Shown here: piece after piece, positions 29,603 to 34,114 of the stretch
Numbering within the stretch: the first letter of the stretch is position 1
Layout of the letters: every line of letters starts with the position of its first letter
Assembly (NCBI GenBank): GCA_903860135.1
Contig: CAIOPG010000008.1
Coordinates: 127-64,126 of the forward strand
Direction: 5' to 3'
From: Candidatus Omnitrophota bacterium
Lineage (GTDB): Bacteria > Omnitrophota > Gorgyraeia > Zapsychrales > Fredricksoniimonadaceae
Length of the DNA stretch: 64,000 nt
Position numbers and translations under genes: made by a program
Notes under the pieces: model-generated
What the model was told of the DNA's origin: nothing
Seen by the model: the letters and a program-made list of their open reading frames with translations, nothing else
Database searches by the model: none

Positions 29603-29820
29603 AAACCCCTGCCTGTTAATAAGAATATATAAGAATGAAAAAGTATATTAGCAATAAAAAATTATCACGCAAGGGAATTAACGCACAGAGAAACCTCAGC
29701 CCAACATCTCGCCGGCAGGACACGCCTGACGAGCACAGCCCCGTCAGCGACCTGGACAAGGGCAGTGGCCGCGGCGGCATGATCCCCCGCTCGGGGCGCA
29801 CGAACGAAATAATCAAATGA

Positions 29821-30489
29821 TCAATAACTCCGGACACAACGCACGCTGTAGATGTTGATCTTATCATTGTTGCCCTCCATGGCCCCAGGGAAGTTCAGGA
29901 GGAAGGCGCGAAAGATATCGTACGCCTTGCCCGCCCAGTAGACGGACGACGCACAACCCAATGCTGTTTTGTTTTCTTGCACAAAAGCCAGGATAGATTT
30001 TCCTGGCAAAACCCAGTCTGTATATCCCCCGTAATCTAAATTGTCACAATAAGACACTGCGGTAGACCATTTTGCATTTGGTGCATCACTCGGCGTTGTC
30101 ATCCAGCCCGGATAACCGACATATACCGCCGTCGTGCCCGTACACGCCTGACCGGCTGTCTTGCCGGCGCAGGGATTAGTCCCACCAGCTATGGCGACAA
30201 ACCCGTAAGTGATAACCGGGCTTGTAGCTGTTTTAACACAAGTCTTCATGCCGTTGGTTATGGAATTATCGTACCATAATGCTCCCACGCTACTGGCATC
30301 ACACGTGAAAGCGGTTGACCCGACCTTGAGCATACGCGACACCCTTAAATCCAAATAATCTCCCGCCGGCGCAGGATAATACGCCGTGAGCGTAAGGCTT
30401 TCAGCAAAAAGCAGACCGGGAAAAACTAAGAGAAGAGAGAGAGAGAGAGAGAGAGAGAGAGAGAAGGAAAATTGTCGACATGGTTTCAT
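29821..30489 (-). CDS. DUF1566 (Lcl C-terminal-like) secreted protein, paralogue 1 of a tandem triplet
   Basis: 222 aa. Its signal peptide MKPCRQFSFSLSLSLSLSLLLVFPGLLFA is encoded by a (GA)n microsatellite. Motifs YTDWVLPGKSIL, YW(S/A), and C-terminal VRCVRSY match DUF1566/Fib_succ-like domains. Confidence 0.65.
   Translation of the reverse strand: MKPCRQFSFSLSLSLSLSLLLVFPGLLFAESLTLTAYYPAPAGDYLDLRVSRMLKVGSTAFTCDASSVGALWYDNSITNGMKTCVKTATSPVITYGFVAIAGGTNPCAGKTAGQACTGTTAVYVGYPGWMTTPSDAPNAKWSTAVSYCDNLDYGGYTDWVLPGKSILAFVQENKTALGCASSVYWAGKAYDIFRAFLLNFPGAMEGNNDKINIYSVRCVRSY
30434..30466. repeat. (GA)~16 dinucleotide microsatellite within the signal-peptide codons of paralogue 1
   Basis: gagagagagagagagagagagagagagagag read directly from the sequence; it encodes SLSLSLSLSL on the minus strand. 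Confidence 0.9.
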
Positions 30490-30614
30490 CGCAGACCTTT
30501 CATTAAAAAATTGATGTGAATTTTAAGCTATTCTTTAGTAACCGCCATCACGCGGGCCAGTAATTCATAACTGAGCTTGTAAATGGGTAAACGCTGATAC
30601 CGCGCCATGGGTTA

Positions 30615-30654
30615 CTTTCTTTTCAAAAACCGTGCGCCCCGCACGAGGCGCACG
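30615..30654 (-). terminator. Intrinsic terminator after DUF1566 paralogue 2 (part of the ~890-bp tandem repeat unit)
   Basis: On the minus strand: 8-bp stem CGUGCGCC/GGCGCACG with an 8-nt loop, followed by GUUUUUGAAAAG. Confidence 0.45.
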
Positions 30655-30680
30655 AACGAAATAATCAAATAACCAAATGA

Positions 30681-31367
30681 TCAATAACTCCGGACACAAC
30701 GCACGAGGTGGATGTCGCTCTTGTTCATGAGGCTGCCGCTCTGGTCGCCATTGGTGAAGTCCTGGATCCAGGCGGCCATTTCCGCCAGAGAGTAGTAGTC
30801 AGTGGCCGACCAGTAGAAGGACGACGCACAACCCAATGCAGTTCTGTTGTCGAATAAAAAAGCCAGTATAGATTTTCCTGGCAAAACCCAGTCTGTATAT
30901 CCCCCCTCAACTAAATTGTTACAATAAGACACTGCGGCAGACCAGTTTGCATTTGGTGCATCGCCATCGCTCGGCGTTGTCATCCAGCCCGGATAACCGA
31001 CATATACCGCCGTCGTGCCCGTACACGCCTGACCGGCTGTCTTGCCGGCGCAGGGATTATTAGTGCTACTCCCACCACCTATGGCGACAAACCCGTAAGT
31101 AATAACCGGGCTTGTCGCTGTTTTAACACAAGCCTTCATGCCGTTGGTTATGGAATTATCGTACCATAATGCTCCCACGCTACTGGCATCACACGTGAAA
31201 GCGGTTGACCCAACCGTTAGTTTCCGCGACACCCTCATATTCAGATAATCCCCCACCGGCGCAGGATAATACGCCGTGAGCCTCAGGCTTTCAGCAAAAA
31301 GTAGACCGGGAAAAACTAAGAGAAGAGATAGAGAGAGAGAGAAGGAAAATTGTCGACATGGTTTCAT
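30681..31367 (-). CDS. DUF1566 (Lcl C-terminal-like) secreted protein, paralogue 2
   Basis: 228 aa and ~85% identical to paralogue 1. The signal peptide has a shorter SL repeat (FSFSLSLSLLLVFPG), encoded by an interrupted (GA)n tract at 31321-31344. Confidence 0.65.
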   Translation of the reverse strand: MKPCRQFSFSLSLSLLLVFPGLLFAESLRLTAYYPAPVGDYLNMRVSRKLTVGSTAFTCDASSVGALWYDNSITNGMKACVKTATSPVITYGFVAIGGGSSTNNPCAGKTAGQACTGTTAVYVGYPGWMTTPSDGDAPNANWSAAVSYCNNLVEGGYTDWVLPGKSILAFLFDNRTALGCASSFYWSATDYYSLAEMAAWIQDFTNGDQSGSLMNKSDIHLVRCVRSY

Positions 31368-31503
31368 CGCAGACCTTTCATTAAAAAATTGATGTGAATT
31401 TTAAGCTATTCTTTAGTAACCGCCATCACGCGGGCCAGTAATTCATAACTGAGCTTGTAAATGGGTAAATGCTGATACCGCGCCATGGGTTACTTTCTTT
31501 TCA

Positions 31504-31542
31504 AAAACCGTGCGCTCCGCACGGGGCGCACGAACGAAATAA
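31504..31542 (-). terminator. Intrinsic terminator after DUF1566 paralogue 3 (repeat-unit copy)
   Basis: Near-identical copy of the 30615-30654 hairpin with one stem mismatch, followed by a U-tract. Confidence 0.4.
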
Positions 31543-32216: not shown

Positions 32217-32399
32217 CGCTGGCCTTTCTTTCAAAATTTAAACCGGATTGGATTGTGCAATGGCCGTTTTTCATCAACGCAACCGTTTGCACAAAAACAT
32301 GCACTATTATTCCAACTGACCTTCCACAATTTTACCGTCTAAGAGAGACCCGGGTTCAACCCGCATTACCTCTGTCTATTGAAAAATGCGAGTTAACCT

Positions 32400-32423
32400 G
32401 AACTTATGAACTTATGAACTTAA
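32400..32423. repeat. Tandem 8-mer repeat GAACTTAT x3 in the divergent intergenic region between DUF1566 paralogue 3 and brnT
   Basis: gaacttatgaacttatgaactta read directly from the sequence. Confidence 0.8.
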
Positions 32424-32596
32424 AATAGCATATTCTTCAAGACGCATCCACTCTTTTGTCGCATTAACAGGCCCGGCGCCACAGAAAATAATAGTGCGTC
32501 CCGATTACTACGATTACCGATTATTTCCTTGAAGCCATACTGAAAAGTTTTCGATTGTTGACAAAAGGCAGACAACAGGATATATTTGGCATAGAT

Positions 32597-32881
32597 ATGT
32601 TTGATTGGGATGAAATTAAAAATGAACACCTCAAGCGTGAGCGCGACATTTCTTTTGAAGAAGTCGTTTTCTGGATCGAGAACGACGGACTTCTAAAGGT
32701 CGAAGACCATCCTAATCAACAGAAGTATCCGGGACAAAGGATTTATATTGTTTGTATAGAAACGTATGTTTATTTAGTGCCTTTTGTAGAACAAAATGGA
32801 ATAGTATTCTTAAAAACCATTATCCCGAGCCGTAAAGCAACCAAAGAACTTTTAAAAAGAGTGCCGCATGAGCCCAATTAA
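32597..32881 (+). CDS. brnT: BrnT-family (DUF497) type II toxin
   Basis: The N-terminus MFDWDEIKNEHLKRERDISFEEVVFWIEND matches the BrnT/DUF497 consensus (FEWDE.K...N..KHG..F.E). The internal ATG at 32597 is preferred over the track start. Confidence 0.65.
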   Translation: MFDWDEIKNEHLKRERDISFEEVVFWIENDGLLKVEDHPNQQKYPGQRIYIVCIETYVYLVPFVEQNGIVFLKTIIPSRKATKELLKRVPHEPN

Positions 32882-33143
32882 GCTTACTCAAGAAGAAGAT
32901 CAAATGCTGCGTTCATACGAACGGGGCGAGTGGCGGCCTGTCAAGAATATGCCATCGGAAATCGATCGTTTTCAACAAATGGCTAAACAGGCATTACGGA
33001 AAGGCCGCCGGATAAATATTCGGCTTTCTGAACGGGATGTTTACAAATTACAAATTTCTGCGTTGCGTGAAGGCGTTCCCTATCAAACTTTAATTTCAAG
33101 CGTCCTGCATAAATATATTTCCGGTCATTTAGTAACACAATAA
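32868..33143 (+). CDS. brnA: BrnA-family antitoxin (RHH/CopG-like C-terminus)
   Basis: 91 aa. C-terminal RINIRLSERDVYKLQISALREGVPYQTLISSVLHKYISG matches the BrnA antitoxin family. Overlaps brnT by 14 nt. Confidence 0.65.
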   Translation: MSPIKLTQEEDQMLRSYERGEWRPVKNMPSEIDRFQQMAKQALRKGRRINIRLSERDVYKLQISALREGVPYQTLISSVLHKYISGHLVTQ

Positions 33144-33184
33144 ACACATCTACGCCGCCCCTGCCGTGAACTTCCGTTTAAGGA

Positions 33185-34114
33185 TCACCCCAGCATCTCG
33201 CCGACGGCGAGTTTGTGGCCGGCGAGGAAGGCGCGGGCGTCCATGGCGTGCGAAGAGGCGGGATGCACACGCCGAACCAGGACGGCCCGGTCAGCGGCCT
33301 GGACATAAAAACCGTCCTTGTGAAGCTCGACGATCTCCCCCGGCTTGCCCTCAACAAGGGCGGTGGCCGCGGCGGCATCGAGGACCTTCAAGCGGTTCCC
33401 GCGCCAGAACGTGAACGCCCCGGGCCAGGGCTGAAGGCCGCGGACGAGGTCATGGATCTCCCTGGCCGGACGATCCCAGCGGATGTGCCCCAGGTCCTTG
33501 TGCATCTTGGGGGCGTAACTCGCACGCTCATGATCCTGGGGCGTCAGCATCTGTTTCCCGGCGGCGATCTGCGCCAGCGTCTCCACTAAAAGTGTTGTGC
33601 CCAACCCTGCCAATTGCCATCGCAGGGCGGCTGATGTCATATCATCGGGGATCGGGCACACACAACGGGTCATGACCGCCCCGGTATCCATGCCCGCGTC
33701 CATCTGCATGATGGTCACACCGGTCTCGACCTCGCCATGCAATATGGCCCAATTGATAGGCGCGGCACCGCGATATTTGGGTAAGAGCGACGCATGCAGA
33801 TTGATACAGCCTTTGGCCGGCAGGTCCAGAACAGCCTGCGGCAGGAATTTGCCATAGGCGATCACCACGAACAGGTCCGCATGGAACCAGGCCAGGCGAT
33901 CGACCAGTACGGGATTCTTCAACGAATCCGGCTGGAACACGGGAATGCCCTGCGCCAGCGCGATCTGCTTGGTCGGTGAATACGTCACGTGCATCCCGCG
34001 CCCGTGCGGTCTGTCCGGCTGGGTCACCACACCGACAATGCGGTGCCCCTCGTCGATCAGGTGCTCGAGGTTGACTGCCGCAAAATCATCACAACCAAAA
34101 AACACTATCCGCAT
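33185..34114 (-). CDS. fmt: Methionyl-tRNA formyltransferase
   Basis: 309 aa with typical Fmt motifs (MRIVFFG...HASLLPKYRGAAPINWAI) and a C-terminal Fmt domain. Confidence 0.9.
   Translation of the reverse strand: MRIVFFGCDDFAAVNLEHLIDEGHRIVGVVTQPDRPHGRGMHVTYSPTKQIALAQGIPVFQPDSLKNPVLVDRLAWFHADLFVVIAYGKFLPQAVLDLPAKGCINLHASLLPKYRGAAPINWAILHGEVETGVTIMQMDAGMDTGAVMTRCVCPIPDDMTSAALRWQLAGLGTTLLVETLAQIAAGKQMLTPQDHERASYAPKMHKDLGHIRWDRPAREIHDLVRGLQPWPGAFTFWRGNRLKVLDAAAATALVEGKPGEIVELHKDGFYVQAADRAVLVRRVHPASSHAMDARAFLAGHKLAVGEMLG

Follow-up and report, generated by a model that had tools for sequence, protein, structure and literature searches.

The window, a 64,000-nt stretch of Candidatus Omnitrophota DNA, holds an intact fmt gene and, about 3.4 kb away, a degenerate sequence resembling the last part of the same gene, with a toxin-antitoxin pair and three DUF1566 genes between the two. 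An earlier, sequence-only reading explained this arrangement by an element that had integrated at the 3' end of fmt. This raises the questions of whether the repeat is a true copy of fmt, whether the DNA between the copies was inserted, and by what route it came.

A degenerate duplicate of the 3' end of fmt

The gene fmt (methionyl-tRNA formyltransferase; 33185-34114, minus strand) encodes 309 aa with both expected Pfam domains (Formyl_trans_N, E=5e-40; Formyl_trans_C, E=2e-27), lies within the conserved synteny gmhB-MGDG synthase-priA-fmt, and shows 88% amino acid identity to fmt of MAG ELA167 (L001). Its portion from codon ~242 to the stop (33185-33391, minus strand), which comprises the last 68 codons, is the functional member of the repeat, the proximal copy. 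The distal copy, on the same strand at 29696-29782 with its stop codon at 29696-29698, is a gapped pseudogene fragment of 87 nt in the same orientation. The two align in three colinear blocks of one orientation: 29696-29714 with 33185-33203 (17 of 19 bases identical, stop codon included), 29720-29758 with ~33267-33305 (82% identity) and 29756-29780 with 33354-33378 (96% identity). The degenerate direct repeat proposed earlier is thus confirmed, with coordinates correct within 1-3 bases.

When the last 240 nt of fmt were compared with the 64-kb window using BLAST, these three blocks were the top three non-self matches (E = 7e-6, 2e-5 and 0.15). The gapped local score of the remnant was 29.4, as compared with 8.4 +/- 1.2 in dinucleotide-preserving shuffles (z = 17; maximum 15 in 1000), and the highest score among 1246 real 300-nt tiles taken from the window was 13.2. 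Under another scoring scheme, the remnant scored 52.5 versus 21 +/- 3.5. Comparison with shuffled controls had been set beforehand as the check on the repeat, which stands 17 SD above them. Translated from the minus strand, the remnant reads AAAATALVQVADGAVLVRRV...GEMLG and then stop, which corresponds to fmt residues 243-309 minus two internal deletions of ~51 and ~60 nt. It is present in three independent assemblies, which makes an assembly chimera unlikely.

A second strain (L149/L150, 97% identical) carries an orthologous, longer remnant of 147 nt, whose translation, AAAATAIVQTANWAVFVRRVLAASSYAMDARAFLAGHRLAVDEILG followed by stop, contains 46 fmt-like residues. The left junction and the 51-nt deletion are common to both remnants, whereas the second deletion (~60 nt) is absent from L149/L150. 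This fmt-like translation settles the origin of the stretch in fmt, and we regard a true duplication of fmt sequence as practically certain. Between the two strains, the remnants are 87-90% identical and the flanks 97%. In L149/L150 a LacI-type gene, not the gene for a P-loop protein found in the window, comes after the remnant, and ~2.5 kb of the DUF1566 array has been lost from L150.

The region between the two copies in comparison with relatives

The block between the two fmt ends, ~3.4 kb with brnTA and three DUF1566 genes, has a G+C content of 0.38-0.52 against 0.56-0.66 outside. On its fmt side, a spacer of 41 nt (33144-33184), identical in L150, separates the stop codons of the converging genes fmt and brnA; its last 14 nt are weakly similar to the end of a small ORF in L001 (p~0.005 in a restricted search space, not robust). 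The inner (left) junction lies in the 3' flank of DUF1566 gene 1 (29783-29820, minus strand), which contains a truncated copy of the terminator of the repeat unit described below: homology to units 2 and 3 stops at ~29785, within the descending arm of the hairpin. The same joint, GGGGATC meeting nTGCCGCC, occurs in strain L150, and no clear microhomology is visible at it. Beyond the remnant lies the conserved upstream region (29603-29688, minus strand) of a gene for a conserved uncharacterised P-loop protein of 582 aa (27854-29602, minus strand), 93% identical at the amino acid level in L001 and with homologues in 59 metagenome loci. The name 'HprK-like' given to this neighbour could not be substantiated, as its matches are of the PEPCK_ATP type and sub-threshold.

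In L001, the closest sequenced relative, fmt and the P-loop gene are 455 nt apart. The slot there contains 364 nt of its own sequence, including the small ORF, and then the upstream region of the P-loop gene; brnTA, the DUF1566 genes and the remnant are all missing from it, so that it represents an empty site. Positions 4670-6492 of L001 match window 29688-27867 at 82% (blastn), so that homology restarts at 29688, 8 nt past the stop codon of the remnant. The comparison with related genomes that the earlier reading had called for thus yielded an empty site, in one genome at 82% nucleotide identity. Block and remnant are also absent from more distant relatives (L002, L004 and others). Relatives sharing the flanks show five different contents in the slot downstream of fmt, with no remnant and no detected integrase in any of the alternatives.

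The remnant is closer to fmt of its own lineage (p-distance 0.13-0.19) than to that of L001 (0.19-0.25), and it grouped with the former, not with fmt of ELA167, in 429 of 500 four-point resamples (86% support, from 144 sites only). Such grouping indicates that the duplication is younger than the split from ELA167 and, together with the empty site in L001, that the segment was inserted and pushed the former 3' end of fmt aside. With the G+C dip as further evidence, the idea of a discrete insertion between two fmt ends is borne out, and the block is very probably an insertion bounded by the fmt-end duplicate. The remnant is the displaced, decaying old end of the gene, i.e., an ordinary insertion scar, and is itself without function. 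The cargo genes are of more interest than the scar.

The cargo: brnTA and DUF1566 genes with (CT)n tracts

The brnT-like toxin gene (32597-32881, plus strand; 94 aa from ATG; Pfam BrnT_toxin E=4e-8, 33.9 bits, cutoff 34.5) is annotated as BrnT in public gene tables too. It overlaps by 14 nt a brnA-like antitoxin gene (32868-33143, plus strand; 91 aa; Pfam CopG_antitoxin E=9e-5, 23.6 bits, cutoff 28; NCBIfam BrnA E=7e-4, below cutoff). Upstream of brnT, a promoter-like site, TTGACA-17-TATATT (32558-32586, plus strand), agrees with the consensus at 11 of 12 positions, a consensus match only. The pair may help to retain the block.

The three DUF1566/Lcl_C genes, all on the minus strand, belong to three tandem units of ~870 nt (repeat families D1-D6) with one gene each. 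Intrinsic-terminator-like hairpins of this unit follow gene 2 (30630-30655) and gene 3 (31508-31524); the toxin-antitoxin pair and two repeat-unit terminators reported for the segment are indeed there. Upstream of each (CT)n tract there are twin ATGs 8 nt apart (30489/30481, 31367/31359 and 32216/32208), which, lying in two frames, allow a full protein from two of every three tract lengths. Gene 1 (29821-30489; 222 aa; Pfam Lcl_C E=2e-7, 31.5 bits, just under the cutoff) carries (CT)15 in its signal-peptide codons (30434-30463) and is ON; in an otherwise identical contig, L140, (CT)14 turns it OFF. Gene 2 (30681-31367; 228 aa with signal peptide; Lcl_C E=2e-10, above cutoff) is ON with n=6 (31330-31341), and its strain variant P0001 with n=7 is ON from the second ATG. 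Gene 3 (31559-32216; Lcl_C E=3e-12, above cutoff) is OFF in the window since, by frame analysis, (CT)10 at 32175-32194 throws both start codons out of frame, and its strain variant P0002 with n=9 is ON. As read from these frames, the differences in (CT)n length between assemblies are predicted to switch the three genes, which encode predicted surface proteins, on and off. Both this genome and related ones have, at other places, further DUF1566 paralogues that share the (CT)n leader. The C-termini of the DUF1566 proteins are hypervariable and resemble the variable regions of diversity-generating retroelements (DGRs).

Route of insertion

The incoming DNA would have consisted of an fmt 3' end, the 41-nt spacer, brnA-brnT and at least one DUF1566 gene, and would have arrived in an ancestor that lived after the split of the ELA167 lineage and before the split from L149/L150. 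Recombination into fmt at about codon 242 would have kept the gene intact and moved the resident last 68 codons ~3.4 kb downstream, beside the promoter region of the P-loop gene. The fragment, no longer under selection, would then have lost ~51 nt, as seen in both strains, and a further ~60 nt in the window strain only, with substitutions accumulating ~3 times faster than in the flanks. As the route, we propose homology-anchored recombination with DNA of a closely related Omnitrophota donor, in which one exchange would have taken place inside fmt and the other end would have been joined illegitimately; homology-facilitated illegitimate recombination, or single-crossover (Campbell-type) insertion of a circularised fragment, could both have produced this outcome.

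The intact fmt end is 83-87% identical to L001, no lower than the remainder of the gene. The rebuilt end thus does not look more foreign than the gene as a whole, which speaks against an integrase, and any donor must have been closely related. The paralogues with the same leader in this and related genomes make a related donor plausible, and the five slot contents are what replacement through conserved flanks would be expected to produce. Neither a donor nor a circular form came to light, nor did a second occupied genome whose junction differs, and we can therefore only infer the route; with evenly balanced confidence, we take it to have been homology-anchored rather than integrase-mediated. 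Replacement by recombination accounts for the locus equally well as or better than an integrative element.

The strongest rival, which we consider possible but doubtful, is a decayed islet of the e14/icd type that brought its own site-specific recombinase and, in its attP, ~200 nt of fmt-like sequence, and from which integrase and arm sites were later deleted. The architecture is like that of e14 in icd, with its 163-bp pseudo-icd' at the far end (PMC6379469); the duplicated segment ends exactly at the stop codon, as would also be expected of such an element; the block has atypical G+C and contains a toxin-antitoxin pair; and large deletions do occur here, as the ~2.5 kb missing from the L150 array and the two gaps in the remnant attest. 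However, no recombinase or reverse-transcriptase domain was detected in ~73 kb (Pfam tables for window 462-64000 and 9 kb beyond), which agrees with the earlier remark that no integrase remains in the segment, and brnA occupies the usual integrase place beside the rebuilt fmt end. At the inner junction, the truncated cargo terminator abuts fmt codon ~242 with no arm region. Furthermore, the fmt end is not duplicated at any of the 72 other fmt loci, searches of viral contigs and plasmids gave no related sequence, and fmt was not found described as an island integration site in the literature searched. Of the earlier explanation, then, insertion at the fmt 3' end stands, whereas no evidence was obtained for an integrative element with its own recombinase, and a self-mobilising integrase element is not favoured.

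It is unlikely that block and duplicate predate the L001 split and that L001 lost both by recombination between fmt ends, its empty site being secondary. A clean fmt would result if the 207-nt direct repeats recombined, and the L001 slot does have 364 nt of lineage-specific sequence with a small ORF; yet the remnant branches with the window fmt after the L001 split (429/500) and is nearer to it than to L001 fmt, and L002, L004 and other distant relatives are without block and remnant. Slightly less probable still is a local origin, in which replication slippage or unequal exchange duplicated the end of fmt and unrelated genes were gained later between the copies. The locus is prone to tandem duplication, as in its three ~870-nt units, and to deletion, but this course requires two independent events at identical boundaries, and the remnant lies between cargo terminator and native flank exactly as a single insertion predicts. 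Chance or G+C-rich composition is hardly credible as the source of the similarity: the blocks are individually short (19-39 nt) and G+C-rich, but the shuffle and tile tests, the colinearity with reading frame and stop codon kept, and the 147-nt orthologue refute it.

Comparison with known systems

The prophage-like element e14, like phage 21, occupies the 3' end of E. coli icd; e14 leaves a pseudo-icd' of 163 bp at the far end (PMC6379469). As in icd, the incoming DNA at fmt would have supplied a substitute 3' end that kept the housekeeping gene intact, with the old end, 163 bp long in icd and at least 207 bp in fmt, left on the far side in direct orientation. Unlike e14, which has its own integrase and excises precisely, the fmt block shows no recombinase, arm sites or identical core; a truncated cargo terminator forms its inner junction, and 72 other genomes show no use of the site. 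Closer to the homology-anchored route is the displacement model for orphan 3' ends of Rhs, CDI and T6SS effectors, which invokes homology-facilitated illegitimate recombination (PMC5361080). In both cases a conserved 5' part would serve as the anchor, a new 3' end would be inserted with cargo, and the old end would be shifted downstream and decay. At the effector loci, polymorphic toxin tips are displaced together with immunity genes, in a recurrent process, whereas fmt is an essential housekeeping gene, both of its ends encode the same sequence, and the event was single. With its five gene sets between shared flanks, the slot downstream of fmt also resembles flexible genomic islets, which are hot spots of replacement flanked by conserved core genes. 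Clean double-crossover replacement leaves no scar, and the duplicated gene end kept here is the only unusual point of this lineage.

The DUF1566 genes call to mind the DGR variable proteins of the DUF1566/CLec2 class, of the Legionella LdtA type (PMC5758913). No template repeat or reverse transcriptase was found within 73 kb; the variable region differs in length among the three copies, and strains differ at one place by a 4-aa indel, a change that DGR mutagenesis does not make. Like LdtA-type proteins, those encoded here are short and secreted with a C-terminal DUF1566 domain, and as in DGRs, strain differences are limited to the last ~60 residues, where NNC-rich codons precede a VRCVR tail that is invariant; conserved 3' nucleotides and a hairpin come next. 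In contingency loci such as opa of Neisseria (CTCTT) and lic1 of Haemophilus (CAAT, with start codons in two frames), repeats lie in leader-peptide codons. The DUF1566 genes differ from these in having a dinucleotide repeat, in belonging to an uncultured candidate phylum and in that switching is here read from sequence; they share with them a repeat tract placed in the signal-peptide codons, twin ATGs in two frames and a tract length that differs between assemblies.

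Duplication of the 3' end of fmt

Read on the minus strand, the locus runs from gmhB through a gene for an MGDG-synthase-like glycosyltransferase and priA to fmt (33185-34114, minus strand, 309 aa), whose best protein relatives all come from Candidatus Omnitrophota metagenome-assembled genomes. The window corresponds to bases 125-64124 of the ENA contig ERZ27313599:k141_359998 (128 kb). Downstream of fmt lie brnA (32868-33143) and brnT (32597-32881), both on the plus strand and convergent with fmt, followed on the minus strand by three DUF1566/Lcl_C genes (31559-32216, 30681-31367 and 29821-30489) and a gene for a conserved P-loop protein of 582 aa (27854-29602). 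Beyond the P-loop gene in this order are Phd and ParE, then the gene for a 1031-aa protein (24033-27128). The G+C content is 0.38-0.52 over 29600-33100, compared with 0.56-0.66 in fmt and priA.

Nucleotides 29696-29782 form a gapped, same-orientation copy of the final 68 fmt codons, stop codon included. When the last 240 nt of fmt were compared with the whole window by BLAST, the three top non-self matches were colinear and all fell in this remnant (E = 7e-6, 2e-5 and 0.15). In the comparison with shuffled controls that the sequence-only reading had proposed, gapped local alignment gave a score of 29.4, far above the 8.4 +/- 1.2 obtained with dinucleotide shuffles (z = 17), and the highest score among 1246 real 300-nt tiles taken from the window was 13.2. 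Two deletions have removed approximately 51 nt (fmt codons EGKPGEIVELHKDGFY and one more) and, near its end, approximately 60 nt from the remnant. The reading frame of fmt has been regenerated as that reading claimed: the protein is of full length (309 aa), retains both Pfam domains and aligns end to end with its relatives. At the inner junction, where GGGGATC is joined to ATGCCGCC, a truncated terminator abuts fmt codon ~242, with at most 3 nt of assignable microhomology; this terminator is the cargo's own, cut in its descending arm. The remnant, bordered by the cargo terminator on one side and by the native flank on the other, has the place of an old 3' end left downstream of new cargo.

Two Logan contigs, L149 and L150, represent a second strain that is 97% identical to the window from gmhB to brnT. 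Its orthologous remnant is longer, with 147 nt encoding 46 fmt-like residues; the left junction (GGGGATC joined to nTGCCGCC) and the 51-nt deletion are as in the window, and the second deletion is absent. This longer remnant settles the fmt origin of 29696-29782. The two remnants are 87-90% identical, compared with 97% in the flanks, and such faster divergence is the pattern that an unselected fragment should show. The degenerate direct repeat of the fmt 3' end that had been proposed to flank the DUF1566-brnTA segment is thus upheld by the alignment statistics, by the window tiles and by the longer orthologue in L150.

Most of the DUF1566 array is missing from the second strain, where homology stops at window position 32467 and returns ~110 nt before the end of a DUF1566 gene; the array itself is therefore unstable. 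The surviving ~110-nt 3' fragment carries yet another variable tail (L149 5083-5680; L150 2146-2648). After the remnant, this strain has a gene for a LacI-type HTH regulator in place of the P-loop gene. The regulator gene is absent from the window, and a protein search for its identity gave no match; its presence may reflect either an additional insertion or a rearrangement.

The unoccupied site and the timing of the insertion

The closest sequenced relative, MAG ELA167 (L001; 88% amino-acid identity for fmt, 93% for the P-loop protein), provided the empty site whose existence the sequence-only reading had left to be checked. In L001, 364 nt holding a small ORF come after fmt and are followed by the P-loop gene's upstream region, and the fmt end is free of brnTA, of DUF1566 genes and of any fmt remnant. 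DNA homology to L001 extends through fmt to 4 nt past the stop codon and is back at window position 29688, 8 nt beyond the stop codon of the remnant. As aligned, the excess of the window over L001 is exactly the block plus the remnant. The copies form a real repeat, and the DNA that they enclose is a true insertion by which the old end of fmt was displaced.

To date the insertion, we used the 144 sites of the longer remnant. Its p-distance was 0.19 to the intact fmt end of its own lineage, 0.25 to that of L001 and at least 0.31 to those of more distant relatives. By neighbour joining, the remnant was sister to the fmt genes of the window and L150, with 429 of 500 four-point resamplings in agreement. 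The distances and the tree therefore place the duplication after the split from L001 and before the divergence of the two 97% identical strains, and a distant donor is excluded. Individual blocks of the remnant gave a mixed signal as to the native end, being L001-like at the deletion point (TGTCCAGG) and window-like elsewhere; on this question only the 144-site analysis is informative, and single blocks are not.

The small ORF in the 364-nt spacer of L001 (4326-4631, 102 aa) shares 53% identity with the last ~66 residues of the 1031-aa protein. It has no Pfam match and is a detached copy of the C-terminal domain of that protein. The spacer between fmt and brnA (33142-33157) matches the stop-codon region of this ORF (L001 4623-4638) colinearly at 15 of 16 nt, with p of approximately 0.005 in a restricted search space and at chance level in a larger one; equally good matches occur elsewhere by chance. 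If it were real, the sequence just downstream of intact fmt would share ancestry with that of L001.

Genes downstream of fmt in relatives

In more distant relatives, the slot downstream of fmt is filled differently: with genes for a 237-aa repeat protein, MscL and a 568-aa membrane protein in L002, with genes for proteins of 382, 235 and 565 aa in L004, and with ORFs of 145 and 79 aa on the contig P0010. The different gene sets indicate that the slot is a hot spot of replacement with at least five states. The fmt remnant is absent from L002 and L004, the slot relatives compared at the DNA level. We looked up to 10 kb downstream of fmt at 72 other loci, of which 15 are from Omnitrophota, and found no duplicate of the fmt 3' end by DNA or by protein comparison.

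The P-loop gene on the far side of the block had been labelled HprK-like. That label was not borne out: the gene has no above-threshold family match, its one similarity being to PEPCK_ATP-type P-loops (Pfam E = 0.002; PDB 1j3b E = 0.011). The protein is conserved in 59 metagenome loci, most of them without fmt nearby, and a metagenome scan with it yielded no relative closer than those already known. Between this gene and that of the 1031-aa protein lies the Phd/YefM-ParE toxin-antitoxin pair (27282-27843). The pair is missing from L001, in which the two genes are 230 nt apart, and L002 has other genes at that position; no gene-end duplicate was found in the flanks of the ParE/Phd module. Elsewhere in the window, public Pfam tables indicate a Tsp45I-type restriction enzyme with an N6/N4 methyltransferase (11704-13719) and two [FeFe]-hydrogenase-like/NADH-dehydrogenase-like clusters with HydE/F/G-type maturases (~460-9000 and 14800-23000).

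Mechanism of the insertion

We favour homology-anchored capture of the block, a reading to which we give about an even chance, over a decayed integrase-borne element. That such an element made the duplication is somewhat unlikely. No Phage_integrase, Resolvase, rve or DDE domain was detected in the segment, in line with the earlier claim that no integrase remains there, or in any called gene from window position 462 to 9 kb past the window end. Deletions in the region could well have removed an integrase. The gene adjoining the rebuilt end of fmt is brnA, and at the inner junction it is a cut cargo terminator that meets the fmt codons. The rebuilt end and the remainder of the gene are equally similar to relatives, and none of the 72 other loci has a duplicated fmt end that would mark use of the same site. 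Nothing related was found in mobile DNA: no relatives of the DUF1566 protein or BrnT turned up among IMG/VR viral contigs, and the islet DNA had no match among plasmids. A search of 27000-35000 against Rfam found nothing. Of the earlier proposal that an islet had integrated into the 3' end of fmt, the insertion stands, with the remnant displaced and the site in L001 unoccupied, and the integrative-element mechanism is unproven, neither a recombinase in the 73 kb covered nor reuse of the site in the 72 other loci having been found.

As for the donor in homology-anchored capture, a related chromosome is plausible, because DUF1566 genes of the same type occur elsewhere in this genome and in related ones. 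The identity profile of fmt against L001-L005 showed no mosaic breakpoint, which fits a closely related donor and is not proof of one. If the homology-anchored route is true, duplicated gene ends can arise even without an integrase, a caution for island-finding tools that take flanking repeats as att sites.

Cargo genes with variable repeats and variable C-termini

The cargo genes are more interesting biology than the scar. brnT matched Pfam BrnT_toxin at E = 4e-8 with 33.9 bits, 0.6 under the gathering score of 34.5, and brnA gave weak matches to CopG_antitoxin (23.6 bits; cutoff 28) and NCBIfam BrnA (19.8 bits; cutoff 60). The toxin-first order and the 14-nt overlap of the two genes fit the BrnT/BrnA family. 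The DUF1566 genes form three tandem units of ~870 nt that are 81-93% identical, with terminator-like hairpins after two of the three; genes 2 and 3 (30681-31367 and 31559-32216) scored 41.7 and 47.4 bits against Lcl_C, above the gathering score of 34.9. A 26-codon ORF (MARYQRLPIYKLSYELLARVMAVTKE) recurs between the units (~30530-30608 and ~31408-31486). We considered it as the N-terminus of an Avd/four-helix-bundle protein of a diversity-generating retroelement (DGR) and rejected it, as Pfam and NCBIfam returned nothing at E<=10.

All three DUF1566 genes carry a (CT)n tract in their signal-peptide codons (30434-30463, 31330-31341 and 32175-32194), each preceded by two ATGs that are 8 nt apart and in different frames. 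Based on frame analysis, tract length sets the frame, such that two thirds of the lengths give a full-length predicted secreted protein and one third give none. Tract lengths vary among assemblies of one population. Gene 1 (29821-30489) has (CT)15 in the window, predicted ON, and (CT)14 in the contig L140, predicted OFF, and this is the sole difference between the two sequences in 20.9 kb. For gene 2, n is 6 in the window and 7 in the strain variant P0001; for gene 3, n is 10 in the window (predicted OFF) and 9 in the strain variant P0002 (predicted ON). With a frame-setting 5' tract and length polymorphism among near-identical sequences, the DUF1566 genes resemble simple-sequence-repeat contingency loci, and switching of their expression is predicted.

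The last ~60 codons of these genes (29821-29990, 30681-30860 and 31559-31730) are hypervariable among paralogues and strains. Compared with the window proteins, the strain variants carry 2 and 9 substitutions and one indel, all within ~60 residues of the C-terminus; over the ~170 residues of the mature protein that come before, there are no differences. Codons of the variable region are mostly NNC. An invariant VRCVRSY closes each gene, the nucleotides that follow are conserved even in a distant paralogue linked to ribF, and a G+C hairpin comes next.

That paralogue, found downstream of ribF on two contigs from the same sample series (L147 1273-1957 and L148 1250-1934), is 51% identical and has a twin-ATG (CT)11 leader of the same design, predicted OFF; no gene-end duplicate flanks it. 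In another genome, a 66% identical DUF1566 homologue (P0003) is located between truA and rplM, with a HEPN/MNT toxin-antitoxin pair on one side and a PIN pair on the other.

The DUF1566 C-termini resemble DGR variable regions of the DUF1566/CLec2 class (PMC5758913). No second variable-region-like tail that could serve as a template repeat was found in the window or the next 10 kb, and no RVT domain of a DGR reverse transcriptase was called in 73 kb; the DGR reading is therefore kept as hypothetical. Because DGRs with remote targets are known (PMC5758913), the missing nearby reverse transcriptase is compatible with a DGR elsewhere in the genome. In the literature searched, we found no published description of simple-sequence-repeat phase variation and DGR hypervariation in the same genes, and the novelty of the locus may lie in its cargo, not its scar.

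Omnitrophota are regarded as tiny cells, reliant on cells of other kinds. Slippage-switched secreted lectin-fold proteins, variable at the binding end, would be equipment expected for changing attachment targets. A combined reading, which we offer tentatively and consider unlikely as a whole, is that the islet is a surface lectin-fold array of an uncultured Omnitrophota nanobacterium, its genes switched individually by (CT)n tracts and twin starts and their C-termini rewritten by an unlinked, remote-target DGR; the array would have been captured beside an essential gene by homology-anchored recombination and held by the toxin-antitoxin pair.

Comparison with known insertions

The scar is a clean, datable case of accessory genes placed behind an essential gene that was left unharmed, in a candidate phylum represented by metagenomes alone. 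Insertions of this sort are ordinary events, and the fmt locus adds one more example to them. In the e14 element in icd, a 163-bp pseudo-icd' lies at the far end of the element (PMC6379469). The fmt locus shares its architecture, with direct repeats of the target gene, a regenerated frame and an unoccupied site in a relative; unlike e14, it has no called recombinase gene in or next to the block, and no use of the site was seen at the 72 other fmt loci. The architecture fits equally well with that of Rhs and T6SS loci, whose displaced 3' ends have been proposed to arise by homology-facilitated illegitimate recombination (PMC5361080).
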